Source of the DNA: a virus
Virus record (IMG/VR): IMGVR_UViG_3300026311_000005
Coordinates: 1 to 38,648 of that record
Length of the DNA stretch: 38,648 bases
Strand: one strand, 5' to 3'
In this document: positions 2,039 to 33,420 of the stretch, piece after piece
Layout of the letters: each line of letters opens with the position of its first letter
Position numbering within the stretch: position 1 is the stretch's first letter
Notes under the pieces: generated by a model
What the model saw: only the letters and a program-made list of their open reading frames with translations
Told to the model about the DNA's origin: nothing
Databases searched by the model: none
Translations under genes and position numbers: made by a program

Positions 2039-4611
2039 GGTTTCGTGATCCCTCTGACTGTGCCAGTTATATCCGAATTTTGCGATATCGCATATCTTCG
2101 AATCATCAACACCGATATCGTTTCGAGATTACCATCCAATCTGCAAAATTGTGATATATCTAAATCGCTAATAATATTCCCATATATTGGCTTCGCTGTA
2201 AGATACGCGCATCGCGCTCCGTTAACGGTGACGATGCAGTCCACCGCCGCATCTGGATTTTCTTGTGAAGTCGTCCCGGACGAAGATAACGAAAACAATA
2301 CCAACCCGGCATCGGTCCCAAAATCATCGGGCGTGAAATTCATCTCAAATTCATATCCTGAAATATATATATGACCACTCGCTGTTCCGATAGTGTTGTG
2401 TCCTGACAACATCAATCCATCTTCCCATGACGTGATGCACGATACCGACGTGGTGATTAATCCGCTGACATCCTCCCAATCTTTCCCCCAATTAGTCGAT
2501 CGGTATAATTCTCCGGCACTAGACGATGCGACCACAAATCCATTGCGGAACGCGTGAAGCTTTTGGATTGTCGTGGATGGGCTGTCATAGACTTCCGTCC
2601 AAGTTGTCCCGTAATCTGTCGATCTAAAAATCTTTCCACCGCGACTAGATCCTGCTAGTATTATACCAGACGTCCACCCTGCCAACGAATATATGAACAA
2701 TTCGGATGAATCGTAGACTTCCGTCCACGTCGCTCCATAATCTGTCGACCTGAAAATCTTTCCACTTGGGTACGTCCCTGCAAATCCGTGCCCCGTGGGG
2801 ATTGCACATGTCCCGAATATATATTGCTCGCTAGTATTATACACTTCGGCCCAAGTTTCTCCGTAATCCGTTGACCGCAAAATACGGCCATTTGCTGATG
2901 TCCCGGCAATTGCGTATCCATTTTCCCATGTAGACATTGCCCATATCTGCGATCCAGATGAATCGTAGACTTCCGTCCACGTCGCTCCATAATCTGTAGA
3001 CCTGAAAATCTTTCCGTTTGGGGAGCTTCCCGCAATTGCGTATCCATTTTCCCATGTAGCTATTGAAGTAATATTATGTTCAGGTGTTACATTTTTAGCT
3101 ACTGCCCAGGTTACCCCTCGATCCGTAGATCGAAAAATCTTCCCGCCCGCGCCTGAGCCACCGTCACCGGTCCCGGCTATTGCAATATCGTCGTTCTGAA
3201 ACACCCCAATTGATGCAATAGTTTTTTCTCCGGTACTATATATGTGTGCGAACATATTTGACTCAGAACTATATGAGGCCTCCCCCACCAACCTGTCACG
3301 ATACGCCTCTATCGCTCCGGTTTCGGATCGTTCCAAAAACGCCGTTAGCAGCGACAGATCTGGCGCTCCGACGACGGCCACCTCCCCTGCGATCGTCTCT
3401 CGAATAGATCGAATCTGAGCCGCGAATTTCTCACCGCCCTCGAGATCCAATTCGATCCAGTCTCCTACATCCATACCGCCTCGATACAGATCGATCTCTA
3501 CCGGCGCGTGTTGATGGATCGCATCGTAAAAGTCATCAGTTGCCTGGTCCAGGTGGCCCCACGGTGGAAGCCTGGCACCGGGGAGCTGGTAGGTAGTCTC
3601 AAGCCACGCCTGACCCGGACACAGCAGCTCGCCACGAGCGTACCGCACGCCCTCTATATTTTCCGCGCCGGCGCCCATCCCGACAACGCAAGAATACGGG
3701 ATATATCGAGGTGGCGAGATCTTCTGTAGACTGAAATCATCGCCGATGTGCAGCGACGCGTGGGGGGCCGACTCCGACCCCCTCGCCTTCGGAGTCGCCG
3801 AAATGTCCAGATAGACGTAATCCTCCTCTCTCCGAAAGACGACGTACTGCCCGGTCTCCCCGACGAGATCCCGGATCAAGCCCCAGATCTCGGTCTCGCC
3901 AACCTCGTACGGCGCTCCGACCTCGGAGTCGGTCGCCACGGTGCCTAGCCGGACGTGATTTTCTGCCCACCCGTCGGCGGCGATCACATCATAGATATCC
4001 CCCGTTCCGGCCCCTCGGACATAGAGGTTATCCCCCGAGATCGCATAGCGATAGGTCCCTCCTGCGATCGAGGATAGGGTGGACTCGGCGAGCTTGTGGC
4101 CGCCGTAATAGATATCGTGACCGGTGACGAGCGGTCCCCATCCCTCCAGAGTTCCCACGCCATCCGAATCCCATGACACGATCCCGGTGTCCTGACCGTC
4201 GCAGATCTTCGACCTGCTGAGCCAGAGGAGGCCCATGCAGTACTGAGTCGCCCCGGCCCCCTGTGGCGGGGCGTCGGAGGAGAAGATGTCGGATAGGGTG
4301 AGCCCGACGCCGCCGGGATAAATGATCTCTGGCGCGTATCGGCACTGGAGAAGGGCTTCGGCGGCGATGCAATCATACCGCCTCTGCCCTCCCACGGCGC
4401 TGTACTCGATAGAGACGACTGAGCCGATGAAGAGCACGTCCCCGGAATCCGAAACGGCCCGGACCCTCGCCCCCATTCGGATATGATCGATCTCCGAAGC
4501 GATGGACAGAGAATCGCCTAGATCGTTCTCCAGGGAGCGGAAGAGTTCCGGGTCGGAACCGTCGATGACGAACTCGGACGACTGTCCAGGATTCTGAAAA
4601 TATAGCATCAT
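2035..4611 (-). CDS. Large tail protein with a predicted Asp-box (BNR) beta-propeller domain, sialidase-like
   Basis: Seven repeats of the Asp-box motif S-x-D-x-G-x-T-W (RSTDYGATWTEV and variants); matching near-identical 60-bp DNA repeats around 2700-3020; N-terminal region paralogous to 4608..6803; start placed at the ATG at 4611 that overlaps the upstream stop (ORF track start 4668). Confidence 0.6.
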   Translation of the reverse strand: MMLYFQNPGQSSEFVIDGSDPELFRSLENDLGDSLSIASEIDHIRMGARVRAVSDSGDVLFIGSVVSIEYSAVGGQRRYDCIAAEALLQCRYAPEIIYPGGVGLTLSDIFSSDAPPQGAGATQYCMGLLWLSRSKICDGQDTGIVSWDSDGVGTLEGWGPLVTGHDIYYGGHKLAESTLSSIAGGTYRYAISGDNLYVRGAGTGDIYDVIAADGWAENHVRLGTVATDSEVGAPYEVGETEIWGLIRDLVGETGQYVVFRREEDYVYLDISATPKARGSESAPHASLHIGDDFSLQKISPPRYIPYSCVVGMGAGAENIEGVRYARGELLCPGQAWLETTYQLPGARLPPWGHLDQATDDFYDAIHQHAPVEIDLYRGGMDVGDWIELDLEGGEKFAAQIRSIRETIAGEVAVVGAPDLSLLTAFLERSETGAIEAYRDRLVGEASYSSESNMFAHIYSTGEKTIASIGVFQNDDIAIAGTGDGGSGAGGKIFRSTDRGVTWAVAKNVTPEHNITSIATWENGYAIAGSSPNGKIFRSTDYGATWTEVYDSSGSQIWAMSTWENGYAIAGTSANGRILRSTDYGETWAEVYNTSEQYIFGTCAIPTGHGFAGTYPSGKIFRSTDYGATWTEVYDSSELFIYSLAGWTSGIILAGSSRGGKIFRSTDYGTTWTEVYDSPSTTIQKLHAFRNGFVVASSSAGELYRSTNWGKDWEDVSGLITTSVSCITSWEDGLMLSGHNTIGTASGHIYISGYEFEMNFTPDDFGTDAGLVLFSLSSSGTTSQENPDAAVDCIVTVNGARCAYLTAKPIYGNIISDLDISQFCRLDGNLETISVLMIRRYAISQNSDITGTVRGITKP

Positions 4612-26813: not shown

Positions 26814-26826
26814 AACGACCGCCTCT

Positions 26827-26952
26827 TCACGCGCCCCCGTCCCTCATCGCTTCGGCGAGATCCAGCACCCTTTCAAGACAGTCGCCGATGGTATCGCTTG
26901 CATCTCCGAACTTTGCCAGCCGGGCCTTATCTTTAATCCGGACTCGGATCAT
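26827..26952 (-). CDS. Small protein, paralogue 1 (41 aa)
   Basis: Manual translation MIRVRIKDKARLAKFGDASDTIGDCLERVLDLAEAMRDGGA; last 44 nt identical to the paralogue at 27301. Confidence 0.35.
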   Translation of the reverse strand: MIRVRIKDKARLAKFGDASDTIGDCLERVLDLAEAMRDGGA

Positions 26953-27094: not shown

Positions 27095-27298
27095 TCATCG
27101 CCGCCTCTTCACGCCCCGCCCGCCCTCGCCGGGTTCACGTACGCCACTCCAGTACTTGTGGCGGTATTCCGTTTCTAGCCTCTCGACTTCGACGAACTTT
27201 GCAAGAGCCCGGCTAGCGACAGCGATATCCTCCCATTCGTCGGCCTCGGCGATAACATGGCACAGAGCCATCACGATTCGTCGGGTGGTGGGTTCCAT
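27095..27298 (-). CDS. Hypothetical acidic protein (about 67 aa)
   Basis: ORF track 27095..27304; ATG at 27298 lies 3 nt after the upstream stop. Confidence 0.3.
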   Translation of the reverse strand: MEPTTRRIVMALCHVIAEADEWEDIAVASRALAKFVEVERLETEYRHKYWSGVREPGEGGRGVKRRR

Positions 27299-27300
27299 CG

Positions 27301-27444
27301 TCACGCGCCCCCGTCCCTCATCGCTTCGGCGAGATCCAGCACCCGCGCCAAACAGTCGGCCATCGAATCGGAAGCGTTCCCGAAGTTGGCGAGCCGGGCG
27401 TGATCGGCCCTATTCACCCGAATGAGTATTTTATCATCTGACAT
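27301..27444 (-). CDS. Small protein, paralogue 2 (47 aa)
   Basis: Manual translation MSDDKILIRVNRADHARLANFGNASDSMADCLARVLDLAEAMRDGGA; TATA-like TTAATA about 25 nt upstream. Confidence 0.35.
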   Translation of the reverse strand: MSDDKILIRVNRADHARLANFGNASDSMADCLARVLDLAEAMRDGGA

Positions 27445-27535: not shown

Positions 27536-27672
27536 GTGTCGCGTCGAGTCGAGTCAGGTCCGGTCGTGGCAGTCGCGTCGAGTCAGGTCGGGTCGGGTCG
27601 GGTCGTGGCAGTCGAGTCGCGTCAGGTCATGTCGAGTCGCGTCGAGTCCAGTCGGGTCCGGTCGTGGCAGTC
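27536..27672. repeat. Pentanucleotide array 1: about 27 tandem NNGTC units in three blocks, each ending in GTGGCAGTC
   Basis: Read directly: GTGTC GCGTC GAGTC GAGTC AGGTC CGGTC GTGGCAGTC ...; 5-bp periodicity, six GAGTC units. Confidence 0.8.
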
Positions 27673-27696: not shown

Positions 27697-28332
27697 GTGG
27701 CAGCAAAAGCAAAAGCGCCCGCCCAGAGCGGGCCTATAACCCTGAAAAGGATCGAGTTGGAAACGGTTGTCGTCCCGATCGTGGGGACCTCTGAGCTGAT
27801 CGTTCACAAGTGGAGCGATAAAGCCAAGCGCCAGATGCTAGACAAGCAGATGAAACCGGGGACCAGATCAAAGAAGGAAGCAAAAGACCCGGTAGCCGAC
27901 TACGAGGCGTCGAAATATAAGACGCCCGAAGGCAAAGATGCGATGGTGACGACCGCCTTCAAGAAGGCGATGGTTGACGCCCTCCGCTACTTCGACGGTG
28001 TGAGTATGGTCCTGGGAAAGACCGCCTTCTTTGTAGAGGGCGAGTACGTCGAGCTGGAGGGCGAGCCCCGGATGAGAGAAGACATGGTGAGGCTGGACGG
28101 CGGTGGGTCTGCTGACATCCGATACCGGGCCGGGTATCCTGAATGGAAGACGAAGCTCACCATCACCTACGCAAAGGATATCCTCACTATGGAGTCGGTC
28201 CTGTCCCTGGTAGAAGCAGCGGGACAGACCCAGGGCGTTGGCGAATGGAGGCCGTCGTCCAAGAAGACCACCGGTCCCTTCGGTCGGTTCACGATCGACA
28301 CGTCCCGGAAAATTGAGGTGATCACTGCATGA
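27697..28332 (+). CDS. Hypothetical protein (211 aa), first gene of the repeat-flanked plus-strand cassette
   Basis: ORF track; GTG start with GGAG about 11 nt upstream; no recognisable motif. Confidence 0.5.
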   Translation: MAAKAKAPAQSGPITLKRIELETVVVPIVGTSELIVHKWSDKAKRQMLDKQMKPGTRSKKEAKDPVADYEASKYKTPEGKDAMVTTAFKKAMVDALRYFDGVSMVLGKTAFFVEGEYVELEGEPRMREDMVRLDGGGSADIRYRAGYPEWKTKLTITYAKDILTMESVLSLVEAAGQTQGVGEWRPSSKKTTGPFGRFTIDTSRKIEVITA

Positions 28333-28853
28333 CCAAAATGGTATATGCCTGGAGAGAGGGGCGGAGCGCCAGCCCCTACCTTTCCAACGTATCCCCCCAG
28401 GTGGTCGGTGAAGAGCTGGAGAAGGTCCGAGAACAGGGGGGGGGGATGATCTTTCCCCGTGCCGTCATCGATCACGCCCGACCATCCGACTCGCCCCTCC
28501 ATTCATGCTTTGAATGGAACGACACGGAAGCCGCCGAGAAGTTCCGAATCGTCCAGGCGAGGGGGGTCATCAAGTCTGTCGAGATCGTCGAGATCAAAGG
28601 CAAACCACTCCCCTCCCCCATCGTAGCCAACGTCAGCGTGACGCGCCGGGCCGTTGTGCCGGGCGATCCAAGGATCAGGTATTATGAGAGCACTCCTCTC
28701 GCCCTCCAGGACCCGGAGCTTCGGGACCAGGTACTCCAGAAGGCTCTTAGGGAGCTGGAATCCTGGCGGGAACGATACGACGCCTTTACCGAGTTCAGTC
28801 TGGTCTTCGGCTCGATAGAAGCCATCCAGAAAAAGATAAGATCTTCAGCCTGA
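28329..28853 (+). CDS. Hypothetical protein (174 aa), second gene of the cassette
   Basis: ORF track; 4-nt overlap with the upstream gene. Confidence 0.5.
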   Translation: MTKMVYAWREGRSASPYLSNVSPQVVGEELEKVREQGGGMIFPRAVIDHARPSDSPLHSCFEWNDTEAAEKFRIVQARGVIKSVEIVEIKGKPLPSPIVANVSVTRRAVVPGDPRIRYYESTPLALQDPELRDQVLQKALRELESWRERYDAFTEFSLVFGSIEAIQKKIRSSA

Positions 28854-28860: not shown

Positions 28861-28868
28861 TTTTCATG

Positions 28869-29025
28869 GCGGTCGGGTCAGGTCGTGTCGGGTCCGGTCG
28901 AGTCGAGTCGTGTCAAGGCAGTCGGGTCCGGTCGGGTCGAGTCATGTCTCGTCACGTCGAGTCAAGTCAAGGCAGTCGCGTCGTGTCGTGTCATGTCACG
29001 TCGTGTCGCGTCTGGTCGTGGCAGC
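28869..29025. repeat. Pentanucleotide array 2: about 26 tandem NNGTC units in three blocks punctuated by AAGGCAGTC, AAGGCAGTC and GTGGCAGCC
   Basis: Read directly; same unit type and orientation as array 1. Confidence 0.8.
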
Positions 29026-29060
29026 CGTGGCGTGTCTTGCTGCCACTATTCTATTTTTAT
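29017..29060 (+). terminator. Putative intrinsic terminator of the plus-strand cassette
   Basis: Stem GTGGCAGC, 13-nt loop, GCTGCCAC, followed by TATTCTATTTTTAT. Confidence 0.45.
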
Positions 29061-29170: not shown

Positions 29171-30529
29171 TCATGGCGCGAAGTCCTCCAGCGTCGCCGG
29201 GGGCCTCTCCGCCGCCGCCAGTCTAGCCTCGGCGATCTCGACGTACTCAGGCTCAAGCTCGATCCCGATATATCCGAATCCCTCCTCTTTCGCGGCGACG
29301 AGGGTCGTACCCGATCCGGCGAATGGGTCCAGGACCGTCCCGCCTGGGGGGGTGACGAGCCGGACTAGGTAGCGCATCAGCTTGAGGGGCTTGACCGTGG
29401 GGTGGTGGTTTTGGCGATGGGTTTTGCCTCGGAGATATGGGTTGTCAATCGGGGTGTTTCGTCCATCGTCTGTGATCCGATCTGGCATCCCCTCCAGCCC
29501 CCGGTTCCGTTCGGCCCGGCTCGCCTTCGCTACATATACGATCGGGTCCGGGTCTATCTGGAGGAAGAAGCGGGCGGCGGTGCCTTCTCTATCATGCCAT
29601 GTATGTTGCCCCCCCTTCAACCCGAACATACCACCCGGATCAGCTGATACTTTACCGCGGCCTTCTACAGAACCGCCGCTCTTCAGATGCCCCGATTGCT
29701 CCGCTATGAGCCGTACCGCACATCCTTCGACGCAGTCCTCCCCTCGCCGAACGCACCCCGGCGCGTGGCCGAGGATGAGGTTCGCAGGCCAGCGGCCAGA
29801 AGGGTTCTGGACGAACTCCGACCGATTCGTGTCTTTATATCCGCTTGGATATGTTCTGTTTTTTTGAACATGCCGGCCAGACGAAAGGATATCTCCCGTC
29901 CCGATCCGGCACCCGTCCACATTCACCGCGCCGCAACCCCACCGGAGGACGTTCGCCGCAACCGTCTTCTCTGATAACGGTTTGCGAGCCATCACGATCG
30001 GTTCATGGGCGGGCTTAAGAGCGGTCCCCCACCCGTCCCATTGGCGGGCGGCATCGGTGGCGGGGGCGGTGATGTCGACAGTTTTGCGGCTACCATCCGC
30101 TGGCAATGCGGGACCGTTTGCATATTGACTACCTCTGCCACCTGTTGCATTATTCCCCCAAACTTCTGATTGCCCTATCACGTCCCGCTCGGCCCCAGCC
30201 GCCCGGTCGATCGCCTTCGACACGTCCAGACTTTTCGGGAATCCTGATCCATATACCCAAGAGATACAGTCCCTGATCTCGAGTCCCGCGTCCTCGATCG
30301 CGCAAGCCAGCCGATGATAGGTCCGAGTCCCTCCGAACGCCAGCAGATAGCCGCCGGGCTTCAGGACGCGCCACGCCTGCCTCCAGACCTCCTGATCGTA
30401 GGCTATCCCTGACCCATCCCATTTCTTTCCCATGAACCCCAGCTCATAAGGCGGATCACAGACGATCGCGTCGATAGAGTTCTCCTCCATTTCGGCCATC
30501 CGTTCACGGCAATCTCCCTGTAATATCAT
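29171..30529 (-). CDS. DNA methyltransferase, beta-class amino-methyltransferase (N6-adenine or N4-cytosine), orphan
   Basis: Motif IV IVCDPPYE near the N-terminus and motif I VLDPFAGSGTT near the C-terminus; Cys-rich middle region; no adjacent restriction endonuclease. Confidence 0.85.
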   Translation of the reverse strand: MILQGDCRERMAEMEENSIDAIVCDPPYELGFMGKKWDGSGIAYDQEVWRQAWRVLKPGGYLLAFGGTRTYHRLACAIEDAGLEIRDCISWVYGSGFPKSLDVSKAIDRAAGAERDVIGQSEVWGNNATGGRGSQYANGPALPADGSRKTVDITAPATDAARQWDGWGTALKPAHEPIVMARKPLSEKTVAANVLRWGCGAVNVDGCRIGTGDILSSGRHVQKNRTYPSGYKDTNRSEFVQNPSGRWPANLILGHAPGCVRRGEDCVEGCAVRLIAEQSGHLKSGGSVEGRGKVSADPGGMFGLKGGQHTWHDREGTAARFFLQIDPDPIVYVAKASRAERNRGLEGMPDRITDDGRNTPIDNPYLRGKTHRQNHHPTVKPLKLMRYLVRLVTPPGGTVLDPFAGSGTTLVAAKEEGFGYIGIELEPEYVEIAEARLAAAERPPATLEDFAP

Positions 30530-32259
30530 CCGAAGCCCTCCAGCGTCGCCGGGGCCTCGAAGCTAAACAGGCTTTCCTGTTCATGATTCTTAAGCCCGGT
30601 GTCCACATCGCCGTATATCGATTTGATATTTTTGGGATCACCCTTATAAAATACCAGAACGTTCTGGTGAGTCTTCCCAAGCTTCCGGTATCCCTGAAAC
30701 TGCTTATTCACCCGGATAGGGAGCGACCCCACCGACGTGATCAGGACGGCCTCATTATAAAGGGTCGCCCCGGCGTCCTGGAAGGCTTCGATGGTATCCC
30801 CCACGAAGTTACGATAGAAGCCCCGCCGATCCCGGATATCCCCCACGACAAAGCAGGCGAATCGATCCGGCTTCAGCATCCCCACCGACGCCGCGACGAT
30901 GCCCCGATAGGTCTTGAGGAAGCCCTCATAATCCATGGTGGATAAGTCGCGGGGGTCGTCTGAGTATCTTTCGAGGTCGAAATATGGAGGACATGAAAAG
31001 ATGAGATCGTACCGACCGGGGGCGATGGCGGCGATGTCCTGGCTATCCCCGGCGATCCATCTGGGGTGGGTTCCGCCGTGTTTAATCGTGTCATTGTATC
31101 GAAGCTTCCGCCAGCTGTCCTTTGGCATGTATGAAACGAGGTCCCCGCCGCCTGCGTCGAAATGATCGCATATCCGCCCCGCCTCCTCGTCCCCGAAAAT
31201 ACGATCGAGAGACGCTCGGAAAGCCCGATACGCTGGAATCCTTTCTCCCTGGTTGTAGCATTTCAAGAGCTTATATCGGTTACGTACTATCAAGGTGTTA
31301 TTATCATTTAGCGTAAATGGGGACGCGATGCACCCGAAGGGCTTGTCTGTGGTAAAATGGAGTCCACACAGATCCTCGTCCGTCTTAAATGGGCATCGCC
31401 CGGAAGTTTCAAGCAGGCCGCCTTTTATAGACCCGCCCCGGCCCCGGATCGTCTCCTCCTCGTCTGGGTGGATGGTTATGATGGTCCCGCTAGGCGAGGT
31501 AGATGATTGACAGCAGCTCGCGTGACAAACTGATCGGATATAATCCGGATCGCATCCATGAAACGGTGTCCTGGCCATCGCGGCCGATACCTTGATCTGG
31601 ATCTTTCCATTATCAGACGGAGGACATTTCAACCCTATAAAATCCCATTGATCCTTATTCGCGGCTATCTGCTCCGGTCGGAGATCGACGCCGGTGTACT
31701 GGAAGCCCGTCAACGCCGCCACGATGCCCCGGACGGACCCGCCCGCGAAGGGGTCGAGGACATGGCCGCCGGGGGGCGTGAACCATCGATATATCAACTC
31801 ACAGAGGACGGGATCAAATATCGACGTGCCGCTCTGTGGCTGAGCCGCAAGAATCTTGCGGCTCACTTCGTCTAATTCGTCATCGGGCCGATTGCCCGTC
31901 ACCCAAGTCAATCGATCGCCTATCGGCCTCCCCGCGCCGTCTCCTCTCTCCCGGTGGGAGTAATCGCACGCGGGACGAGGACTCCCACCGGGAGACGCGT
32001 TCTTATAGTGGCTTCTGGCTTGCTCGGAGAAGCCGAGCAAGCCATTTTTATATTTTTTCGAGCCGTCGAATCCTATCTCCCCGTTTTGGCGGCTTATCGT
32101 GGCGGCGTCGGAATAGACATGCACACCGACGCCGCCACGTCCTATCTCGCTCTTGATCCCCTTCGCCAACCAGAACCTCTTCCTCTCCTGCCAATAGCCC
32201 TGCCGGGCGTCGAGGACGGAGAACGGCGGCATCACGAATTTATCGGATAACGTTCCCAC
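30526..32259 (-). CDS. DNA methyltransferase with a long Cys-rich insertion between motif I and motif IV, orphan
   Basis: N-terminal MPPFSVLDARQGYWQERKRFW, motif I VLDPFAGGS, motif IV-like FSCPPYFD; about 270 aa between them with many Cys; likely true start is the ATG at 32232. Confidence 0.75.
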   Translation of the reverse strand: MGTLSDKFVMPPFSVLDARQGYWQERKRFWLAKGIKSEIGRGGVGVHVYSDAATISRQNGEIGFDGSKKYKNGLLGFSEQARSHYKNASPGGSPRPACDYSHRERGDGAGRPIGDRLTWVTGNRPDDELDEVSRKILAAQPQSGTSIFDPVLCELIYRWFTPPGGHVLDPFAGGSVRGIVAALTGFQYTGVDLRPEQIAANKDQWDFIGLKCPPSDNGKIQIKVSAAMARTPFHGCDPDYIRSVCHASCCQSSTSPSGTIITIHPDEEETIRGRGGSIKGGLLETSGRCPFKTDEDLCGLHFTTDKPFGCIASPFTLNDNNTLIVRNRYKLLKCYNQGERIPAYRAFRASLDRIFGDEEAGRICDHFDAGGGDLVSYMPKDSWRKLRYNDTIKHGGTHPRWIAGDSQDIAAIAPGRYDLIFSCPPYFDLERYSDDPRDLSTMDYEGFLKTYRGIVAASVGMLKPDRFACFVVGDIRDRRGFYRNFVGDTIEAFQDAGATLYNEAVLITSVGSLPIRVNKQFQGYRKLGKTHQNVLVFYKGDPKNIKSIYGDVDTGLKNHEQESLFSFEAPATLEGFG

Positions 32260-32404
32260 GGCTGTCCACCTCGTCGATCTTCAGGACCATCGGCGACTTG
32301 AGCGCCCGGACTCCCTTGATCCAAGCTTCCGATAGGCTTTTCGCTTCGACTTCGACGGTATCGATAGATTCCTGTGAAGTGTAGATCTTCACGGCGTATA
32401 TCAT
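32240..32404 (-). CDS. Small protein (about 54 aa)
   Basis: Manual translation MIYAVKIYTSQESIDTVEVEAKSLSEAWIKG...; ATG overlaps the upstream stop (ATGA). Confidence 0.25.
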   Translation of the reverse strand: MIYAVKIYTSQESIDTVEVEAKSLSEAWIKGVRALKSPMVLKIDEVDSRGNVIR

Positions 32405-32694
32405 CCCAGCCCCTCCAAATACTCGATCATGGCCAGCCGTGCCTCCCTTTCGGGATCGGCGGCCCCCAAGATCCGTATCTCCGGGATGCCGATGCTGACC
32501 GTGAACTGCATCCCGTTCGGTCCCTCGAATAGCTCCGCCGCGCCGGTGATCCGGCCCTCGGCGGCGTCGATCAGCCGGGCCACGATCTCCTCATTCGACA
32601 CCCGTCGCCCCTCGGCGGCGGAGGCCCGGCGGCGGATCTCCGCGATCCGGGCTCGCGTCTCCTGGGAGACCTCGATGTACGGCGAGGAGGGCAT
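32401..32694 (-). CDS. Putative ribbon-helix-helix-like DNA-binding protein (97 aa) upstream of the methyltransferase pair
   Basis: N-terminal beta-strand plus helix pattern PYIEVSQETRARIAEIRRR...NEEIVARLIDA. Confidence 0.35.
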   Translation of the reverse strand: MPSSPYIEVSQETRARIAEIRRRASAAEGRRVSNEEIVARLIDAAEGRITGAAELFEGPNGMQFTVSIGIPEIRILGAADPEREARLAMIEYLEGLG

Positions 32695-32725
32695 CAGGGG
32701 GCCCCCTCTCGACTCCTCTGGGGGC

Positions 32726-32980
32726 TCACTGGCCCCCTTCGATCTCGTTCAGCCTGTGGCACATCTTCGAGTCCAGCTCCTCGATTTCATCGTCCTCGAA
32801 CTGGAGGTAGGGCATTGCCTGTAGGATCGCTTTCGATCTCCTCACGATGATTTCGATGAGAGCCTGTTCAGAGCCCAGCTCGTTCTTTCCCTCGATCTTT
32901 CCTACCTCTCTGATCGCCATCTGCGAGATCTCGCAGATCTTCATCAGGCTTTCCAGGGTTTCTGTCGTGGTTGGTATCAT
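32726..32980 (-). CDS. Hypothetical protein (about 84 aa)
   Basis: Internal ATG at 32980 with GAGAGGTG upstream; upstream part of the 140-aa track ORF judged spurious. Confidence 0.3.
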   Translation of the reverse strand: MIPTTTETLESLMKICEISQMAIREVGKIEGKNELGSEQALIEIIVRRSKAILQAMPYLQFEDDEIEELDSKMCHRLNEIEGGQ

Positions 32981-33420
32981 GATTTTGCACCTCTCAGGGC
33001 TTCGCGCCCTACAATACCTACTAGTACCTATGAGGATATATACCTTTCGGTCGGAATACCCATTCGAAACAAAAGAGAGGTGTTGGCGGCCCCGGTTGGC
33101 ATCTCCGAGCCGCCAGGTAAAGGAGGGCATTCTATGGCGCTCCATCATTATGATTCGGGCGAGGTTGCCCTCGCCACAGGTTCGGGTCTGGCGGTTCCCG
33201 CTTAGGGGGTTTAAGATGAAGGGAGTGAATCTTCAGAATATAGCGCCGCCGCGCCGCGAACCAATTCGGCCCGGACTTCATCGGCTCCGGGCCAGTTCAG
33301 GGTAAAGGGGCGGGACGGTCTGACGCGCCCCGCTACTCCGATATGGGGCTTCGATCGCATTTATATCTTTCGGTCGGAAAGACGGAAAGGCTTAAATACC
33401 AGGCCGTCCTATAAGAAGGT

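Follow-up and report, generated by a model that had tools for sequence, protein, structure and literature searches.

What does a cysteine-rich domain do between motifs I and IV of a viral DNA methyltransferase? The question is raised by the virus record IMGVR_UViG_3300026311_000005 of IMG/VR, whose 38,648 nucleotides (positions 1 to 38,648 of the record, hereafter the window) carry on the minus strand two adjacent DNA methyltransferase (MTase) genes. The upstream one, MTase2 (30526..32259, 577 aa, GTG start), contains a Cys-rich insert and is followed by MTase1 (29171..30529, 452 aa). A preliminary description of this DNA, made from the sequence alone, had proposed that the insert was about 270 aa long and might be a metal-binding target-recognition domain (TRD). 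The observations in that description are largely right, with the exceptions of the insert length and of a ribbon-helix-helix (RHH) call on a neighbouring gene, and its interpretation is half right. Judged from its sequence, the locus does not encode a usual MTase with an unusual TRD; what it encodes appears to be a permuted viral MTase that carries a partner domain of metal-cluster type as a plug-in unit.

A permuted methyltransferase with an insert at its seam

MTase2 scored 39.2 bits against PF01555 (gathering cut-off 26.7), in a match split into two stretches. Residues 154-200 align to PF01555 positions 172-218, which are the profile end with motifs X and I, and the part containing motifs IV to VIII comes after the insert; in the homologues P0023 and P0068 the PF01555 profile restarts at position 2. 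Since the profile end is matched before the motif IV-VIII part, MTase2 is a circular permutation of the beta-class fold, with motifs X-I-II first and IV-VIII second, and the canonical beta-class order (IV...X-I) was rejected for this enzyme. The module with motifs X, I and II, which binds S-adenosylmethionine (SAM), lies at 31630..31839, with motif I DPFAGGS at 31735-31755 (aa 169), and the catalytic module with motifs IV-VIII lies at 30625..31068, with motif IV CPPY at 30982-30993 (aa 423), all on the minus strand. Among PHROGs, MTase2 matched phrog_12517 (E 1e-103, again in two stretches) and phrog_498 (E 4e-86), and insert-less relatives pass directly from motif I-II to motif IV.

Motif IV reads CPPY, not D/N/S-PP-Y, in 134 of 135 MTase2-family cores, and SPPY in three relatives, namely one family core, the phiCTP1 protein gp51 and the MTase of locus L013. 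The established classification assigns S/C-P-P-Y in motif IV to the N4-cytosine type, and these tetrapeptides suggest N4-cytosine specificity for MTase2.

The insert was delimited with an independent metagenome contig (L002), in which the order of the two MTase genes and of the two open reading frames (ORFs) that precede them, ORF97-ORF54-MTase2-MTase1, recurs at about 95% nt identity. L002 lacks exactly 528 bp, corresponding to window positions 31076-31603 (+/- 1-2 nt, minus strand), that is, 176 codons, in frame and with no target-site duplication. The Cys-rich insert noticed earlier is thus real, and it is an eight-cysteine domain of 176 aa instead of about 270. Nine of the 14 cysteines of MTase2 fall within it, against five in the other 401 aa, and the distance between motifs I and IV is 247 aa with the insert and about 71 aa in the insert-less allele. 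The insert sits at the exact seam of the permutation, between the helix that follows motif II and the strand entering motif IV.

An alignment of the insert with 99 stand-alone homologues (A2, 100 members) revealed eight invariant cysteines, which in MTase2 numbering are C236, C245, C249, C250, C289, C298, C310 and C334 (minus-strand codons at 31552-4, 31525-7, 31513-5, 31510-2, 31393-5, 31366-8, 31330-2 and 31258-60). The same alignment shows conserved H, K and RNRY motifs, with H91, K96, R116, N117, R118 and Y119 as strictly kept polar residues, and the family is basic (median isoelectric point, pI, 8.9; net charge +6.5). When modelled with AlphaFold2 (AF2) on A2, the insert reached a pLDDT of 95.5 and a pTM of 0.89; with the clean absence of the insert from L002 and its free-standing homologues, this model marks it as an autonomous, independently folding module. 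A structural search of the PDB with the model gave no fold match and a sequence profile search of the PDB with A2 gave no match at E 10. The insert had no match in PADLOC, nor in Pfam even at E 10, and scans of full-length MTase2 against PHROGs and NCBIfam gave nothing over it; none of these domain searches connected it to a common TRD.

Three alleles of one slot

The seam is a variable slot (31067..31678, minus strand), which in blastn comparisons was empty (L002), occupied by the Cys domain (the window) or occupied by a GNAT acetyltransferase (L018). The last of these alleles, P0023 (JGI 3300028603), is an MTase2 whose flanks are 96-98% identical in nt to those of the window gene and whose slot matches PF00583 (E 2.6e-11, aa 192-274); a scan of IMG/VR found no close relatives of the GNAT cassette. 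Seam content was examined in the best 120 of about 7,900 MTase2 homologues. Three near-isogenic alleles exist, one empty, one with the Cys module and one with GNAT, and the module behaves as a cassette.

On the strength of these alleles the reading of the insert as a TRD was rejected, as genes 84-96% identical to MTase2 and without the insert keep all MTase motifs and GNAT occupies the same slot in P0023. The module is moreover found free-standing and at three fusion positions, and the slot is the permutation seam and not the classical TRD position.

In a neighbour-joining tree of the MTase core, the window gene is placed amid seven sequences that lack the module, P0023 included. The nearest relatives of the insert, at about 70% identity, are in-slot copies of a sister clade that have diverged about like the core. 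This sister-clade kinship fits inheritance followed by losses, whereas the tree alone favours a regain of the module. Homologous exchange between co-circulating variants could account for both patterns alike.

A partner of one methyltransferase family

A phmmer search with the insert against 1.84 billion representatives retrieved only 296 proteins, many of them stand-alone proteins of 175-200 aa (about 185 aa), and in a word-indexed search over 100 free-standing proteins in this size range showed 50-64% identity to the insert. The module occurred in seven of 185,579 species-representative genomes, all of them bacterial metagenome-assembled genomes; the family is almost virus-restricted. A literature search found no description of this MTase-linked eight-Cys family, and we report it here as previously undescribed.

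The 367 proteins collected comprised 207 stand-alone copies, about 93 with the module in the slot and, at each of the two termini, about 27 fusions, and in all fusions the partner is an MTase2-type core. Stand-alone copies adjoin MTase2-type genes (E 1e-50 to 1e-74) in the loci L004, L006, L007, L009 and L012, often with the stop codon of one gene overlapping the start codon of the next. One of these loci, L009, belongs to the isolated Clostridium phage phiCTP1, in which the module gp50 lies beside the MTase gp51. The 56 IMG/VR loci obtained with a family-profile search included 26 in which module and MTase are fused, 19 in which they lie within 1.5 kb of each other, with the MTase2-type catalytic region on the same strand as the module, and two in which they lie within 4 kb. 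For about 36% of the domain copies the nearest relative has a different architecture. The MTase2 family thus has in this module a dedicated partner, encoded as a translationally coupled neighbour or fused N-terminally, C-terminally or in the slot.

Relationship to the CxxCxxCC/YkgJ superfamily

Since the insert went undetected in direct domain searches, its identification needed the family alignment. When the members of A2 were scanned singly, 20 of 100 matched PF03692 (best E 9.5e-6) and four of 100 matched DUF3109. Two of 100 matched, weakly, the FliB model NF038110 (best E 0.0014), which gave no match with the window insert, and the insert was rejected as a member of the FliB family. JGI names several members 'Fe-S-cluster containing protein', which is the COG0727 name, and the member P0303 carries a precomputed PF03692 annotation, with which the UniProt name of the BFVD homologue agrees. 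On the strength of these member-level matches and labels, the insert family can be placed as a distant and divergent branch of the CxxCxxCC/YkgJ superfamily. The Cys pattern of the superfamily is present in the insert, as a CC-containing block and then CPF..C..C, and the spacing of the block is C-x8-C-x3-CC, not CxxCxxCC. This homology supports the metal-binding idea of the preliminary description, and the eight cysteines are presumed to bind metal.

The only characterised members of the superfamily are FliB and DpdM, both metal-dependent N-methyltransferases. FliB of Salmonella is a SAM-dependent flagellin lysine N-methyltransferase, whose CX4CX3CC motif holds an oxygen-sensitive [4Fe-4S] cluster required for methylation (PMC8598068). 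DpdM is a phage homologue of DUF3109/YkgJ that methylates the amine of 7-aminomethyl-7-deazaguanine (dPreQ1) in DNA; two metals are predicted in two Cys4 pockets, and according to its authors it has no known nucleic-acid methylase fold (NAR 2023; PMC10516641). The insert was also rejected as a DpdM, as hhalign of A2 against the DpdM family (A3) gave a probability of 13% with E 0.002 over 35 columns; a likeness at the level of the superfamily remains.

Proposed function and alternatives

The reading that we favour, with a little less than even confidence, is that the module is a cassette-borne, metal-binding accessory for DNA modification, possibly with a second catalytic activity. As in the proposal made for DpdM, its cysteines would be arranged in two Cys4 sites that hold metal, as Fe-S or as Zn. 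Because the family is basic, the module is predicted to bind DNA alongside the MTase, where it would modify viral DNA a second time in a metal-dependent reaction. This reaction would most likely be a further N-alkylation of an exocyclic amine, because amines are N-methylated by FliB and DpdM and N-acylated by GNAT, the other cassette of the slot. Viral DNA would in this way gain a modification that goes further than simple N4-methylcytosine (m4C) or N6-methyladenine (m6A) and would broaden protection against host restriction. A bolder form of this proposal, which we regard as rather unlikely, makes the seam a plug-in socket for alternative amine-modifying enzymes working on the same base, the Cys module being a metal-cluster-dependent transferase and GNAT an acylator. 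A possible product of the Cys module would then be N4,N4-dimethylcytosine or another alkylated amine, and the GNAT allele would produce, for example, N4-acetylcytosine.

Several points weigh against an accessory module with a catalytic activity of its own. The metal, the cofactor and any activity are read from homology and analogy, and because the insert-less alleles keep all MTase motifs the module seems dispensable for methylation as such. The window insert itself falls below every Pfam model, and the hhalign comparisons of the insert family with DpdM reached probabilities of 13-29% with only the central CPF..CGxH..PFxC stretch aligned. No preQ, Dpd or Que genes were found in the window or in any family context examined, and an MTase2-type gene was missing from the vicinity of the module in nine of the 56 viral loci (several of them truncated) and in one of seven metagenome contexts. 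Going by general Rossmann-MTase topology, the slot and the catalytic pocket probably lie well apart, which speaks against module and MTase acting directly together on a single flipped base. A DNA-binding role without catalysis would fit a basic, Cys-rich module just as well.

Such a role is the substance of an alternative that we consider possible, if doubtful: the module would be a non-catalytic metal-binding accessory (Zn or Fe-S), either a DNA clamp, a TRD-like specificity unit or a redox/oxygen sensor, which would adjust the sites or the timing of methylation by the MTase fused to it or encoded beside it, and the DNA would carry ordinary m4C or m6A only. Fe-S clusters are common as non-catalytic elements in DNA enzymes. 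In the same direction point the basic character of the family, its tight coupling to one MTase family, the minimal size of some partner MTases (the L006 enzyme has 253 aa and little beyond the catalytic core) and the position between motifs I and IV, which fits the earlier TRD idea. However, the alleles without the insert, 84-96% identical, retain their motifs and therefore do not need the module for target recognition, and its three fusion positions and its occurrence in trans are unlike a fixed TRD. The alternative content of the slot is an enzyme, both characterised relatives are catalytic, and polar residues other than the Cys ligands (the six named above) are strictly conserved.

The module might also play no part in DNA modification, as a selfish or neutral mobile cassette derived from a free-standing phage gene that recombined in frame into a permissive loop. 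Its precise presence or absence in 95%-identical genes, the unrelated content that the slot accepts and the intermixing of architectures among nearest relatives would all suit such an element, yet we judge it improbable: the insert lacks a target-site duplication and shows neither nuclease nor integrase nor Hint/intein motifs, its invariant Cys and polar motifs are maintained in every architecture, and the restriction of its partners to a single MTase family, with both genes on one strand and frequently overlapping at stop and start, points to selection for co-function. A reading of the insert as an intein, intron-like element or assembly chimera, and not as part of the mature protein, is hardly credible and is effectively refuted. 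The only support for it is the clean in-frame insertion without a counterpart in close relatives, whereas the boundaries (...SDNG|KIQIKV...IKHG|GTHP) show neither a first-position Cys/Ser nor a His-Asn before Cys/Ser/Thr, no Hint or endonuclease match was obtained, other metagenomes contain about 90 independent fusions in the slot, 50-70% identical, and the identical gene was predicted by JGI on a contig of 38.6 kb.

Phage DNA hypermodifications rank among the main sources of novel nucleic-acid chemistry and of derived tools, such as restriction-resistant DNA and new epigenetic marks. The module family is small, almost exclusively viral, without a solved structure and tied to one DNA amino-methyltransferase family, and the near-isogenic empty, Cys and GNAT alleles are a ready-made natural experiment on what the module contributes. 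Even on a conservative view, the exchange of domain cassettes at the seam of a circularly permuted enzyme and a new obligate MTase partner are documented. If the seam were indeed a socket for amine-modifying enzymes, the locus would represent a new family of two-step viral DNA hypermodification systems, possibly including systems of methanogenic-archaeal viruses.

Other features of the two methyltransferases

The N-terminus of MTase2 (MGTLS...PPFSVLD) is kept in homologues, and a family motif with invariant alignment columns (MPPFSVLDARQGYWQERKRFW..GRG) lies at 32134..32232 on the minus strand. In relatives this motif is usually preceded by a ParB-like domain (ParB_N in homologues), and aa 4-43 of MTase2 match phrog_15396 (ParB-like). 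The MTase2 family is present in only 27 of 50,697 isolated-phage records. In three homologues (P0033, P0045 and P0090) the whole MTase2 unit is tandemly duplicated, N1-N2-C-N1-N2-C, within one polypeptide.

Two hairpins were noticed in the N-terminal region of the MTase2 gene. One, with 11-bp arms (GGCGGCGTCGG / CCGACGCCGCC), occupies window positions 32101-32136 in the variable part of this region; its 14-nt loop is inverted with respect to the 95%-identical L002, changing the peptide VHVYS to IDMHT, and the difference looks like an inversion by intra-hairpin template switching or recombination. The other, at 32016-32044 on the plus strand inside MTase2, is a perfect 12-bp stem followed by a T-run and was scored as terminator-like opposite the gene. 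Both lie in one indel-prone linker near the N-terminus.

MTase1 conforms to the ordinary beta class of N6/N4 DNA methyltransferases. Against PF01555 it scored 123.2 bits (cut-off 26.7) over aa 19-434, and its motif IV (DPPY, 30446-30457, aa 25) lies N-terminal to motif I (FAGSGTT, 29303-29323, aa 403). The middle region (29474-29974, aa 186-352) is TRD-like and TRD-sized; these features are all on the minus strand. MTase1 matched phrog_67 (E 3e-83), its solved relatives among PDB sequence matches include CcrM, RsrI, DpnA and MboIIA, and mycobacteriophage genes annotated as 'DNA methylase' are about 70% identical to it in nt.

Genome and operon

The window, a rotated copy of the JGI contig Ga0123335_1001437 (38,644 bp), probably represents a viral genome that is complete and circular; the virus comes from an anaerobic-digester virome (JGI 3300009680). 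On this circular-looking contig the two MTases are accompanied by genes for terminase, portal and capsid, which identifies it as viral. The sole relative among the 50,697 phage records is Caudoviricetes sp. vir515 (BK063672.1; loci L001/L082), whose listed host is Methanosarcinales. Common to both are the terminase (33% identity in aa), the portal, a 320-aa protein (50%) and short stretches 88-100% identical in nt, and the host of the window virus may be a methanogenic archaeon.

Five ORFs, ORF84-ORF97-ORF54-MTase2-MTase1, lie head to tail on the minus strand, with stops and starts that overlap or nearly abut. The best explanation of this arrangement is a five-gene viral operon with two orphan DNA methyltransferases at its end. 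The two MTase genes, already reported as adjacent, are real, as both ORFs match PF01555 and PHROG families, and they are translationally coupled. No restriction-enzyme model matched the neighbouring genes in PADLOC and Pfam scans of the flanking ORFs or in the precomputed JGI Pfam annotation of 35 genes over the 21.7 kb around the MTases, which agrees with the earlier statement that there is no restriction endonuclease nearby. Since neither MTase has a recognisable partner endonuclease, self-protection against host restriction is a reasonable default for their putative role. A controller (C-protein)-regulated restriction-modification system was rejected, as the flanking genes gave no endonuclease or helix-turn-helix match.

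Two small genes precede MTase2, ORF97 (32401..32694, minus strand, 97 aa) and ORF54 (32240..32404, minus strand, 54 aa, retained in L002 and in L018), with overlaps of 4 and 20 nt between them and the adjoining ORFs. The RHH-like call made earlier concerned ORF97, and it is plausible and unproven. The pattern is present in the N-terminal half (aa 5-45), whereas Pfam, PHROGs, NCBIfam and PADLOC gave no RHH family match and only DUF7557 at E 0.012. A single-sequence AF2 model of ORF97 of low confidence (pLDDT 65.5; coil 1-10, helix 11-28, helix 34-44) fits an RHH monomer and is not diagnostic. The segment coding for this half (32557-32712) is 94% identical in nt to vir515, where the homologue stands just upstream of an MTase1-like gene. 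In L018 (positions 2-229, against window 32240-32694) the C-terminal half of ORF97 is deleted and the RHH-like N-half is fused in frame to ORF54; as only the N-half survives there, the C-terminal half is dispensable in a relative. A regulatory role of ORF97 is possible.

The operon probably begins with ORF84 (32726..32979, minus strand, 84 aa), a gene called by JGI. About 55 nt upstream of it lies the motif CCGAAAGGTATATAT (33036..33050, minus strand), which resembles an archaeal B recognition element (BRE)/TATA box and is a candidate promoter. A second exact copy lies at 33359-33373, also on the minus strand; the sequence present exactly at both sites is CCGAAAGRTATAWAT, and with up to two mismatches the motif has four sites in all, against 0.23 expected.

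Repeats were seen beyond the other end of the operon. Two period-5 arrays of about 25 copies of GTCNN (GTCGA, GTCGG, GTCAT...), at 27538-27668 and 28864-29036, flank a plus-strand gene pair at 27697-28853 (phrog_4652 and phrog_15946, without known function) immediately downstream of MTase1. The arrays might bind proteins, or they might mark an origin or a pac-type region. Upstream of the arrays are an intergenic 108-nt direct repeat, 81% identical (26824-26931 and 27298-27405), and three copies of a C-rich repeat of 27 nt (26819-26845, 27101-27127 and 27293-27319). The repeat core, about 50 nt long, recurs with 96-100% identity at positions 4048-4100 of vir515.

Comparison with known systems

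The insert and PF03692 (YkgJ/UPF0153; COG0727) have the same topology over the N-terminal 100 aa or so, with a CC block, a short strand-helix and then CPF...C...RP/KPxxC. Unlike PF03692, the insert lies below the detection of the model and differs in motif spacing, and its family is virus-restricted and MTase-linked and has a C-terminal extension of its own of about 80 aa (TLIVRNRYKLLKCY..PAY.AFRASL). FliB resembles the insert in a Cys motif that ends in C-x3-CC, whereas it is a bacterial, membrane-associated protein of about 400 aa with a protein substrate. DpdM of Cellulophaga phage phiSM (gp53) and Vibrio phage VH7D is phage-encoded, about 200 aa long and active on DNA, and phiSM gp53 has eight cysteines in the same order as the insert, C..C..CC ... 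CxF ... CG[IL]H ... PFxC ... C. The two differ in the spacing of the first cysteines (C-x4-C-x2-CC in DpdM, C-x8-C-x3-CC in the insert), in their C-terminal halves, which are unrelated, and in context, which for DpdM is a preQ1/DpdA cluster (seen in phiSM) and for the insert family a CPPY/SPPY amino-MTase.

Concerning the GNAT allele, Mom of phage Mu is a GNAT-fold enzyme that makes N6-carbamoylmethyl-adenine. It offers a precedent for P0023 in that an acyltransferase fold hypermodifies an exocyclic amine of phage DNA. Unlike the GNAT of P0023, Mom is a separate protein and not a domain within an MTase.

As to the MTases themselves, M.EcoGIX and M.BceJIII are PF01555 orphan methyltransferases (PMC7736820). 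These enzymes, the ParB-fused PF01555 orphans of phages and plasmids and the mycobacteriophage enzymes are, like MTase2, orphan amino-methyltransferases on mobile elements with a presumed anti-restriction role. Many relatives of MTase2 have an N-terminal ParB domain, as the ParB-fused orphans do, and MTase1 shares the ordinary beta-class DPPY type with the group. A closer kinship of MTase2 with M.EcoGIX and M.BceJIII was ruled out, as those are beta-class DPPY enzymes, whereas MTase2 is permuted, has CPPY as its motif IV and carries plug-in domains at its seam.

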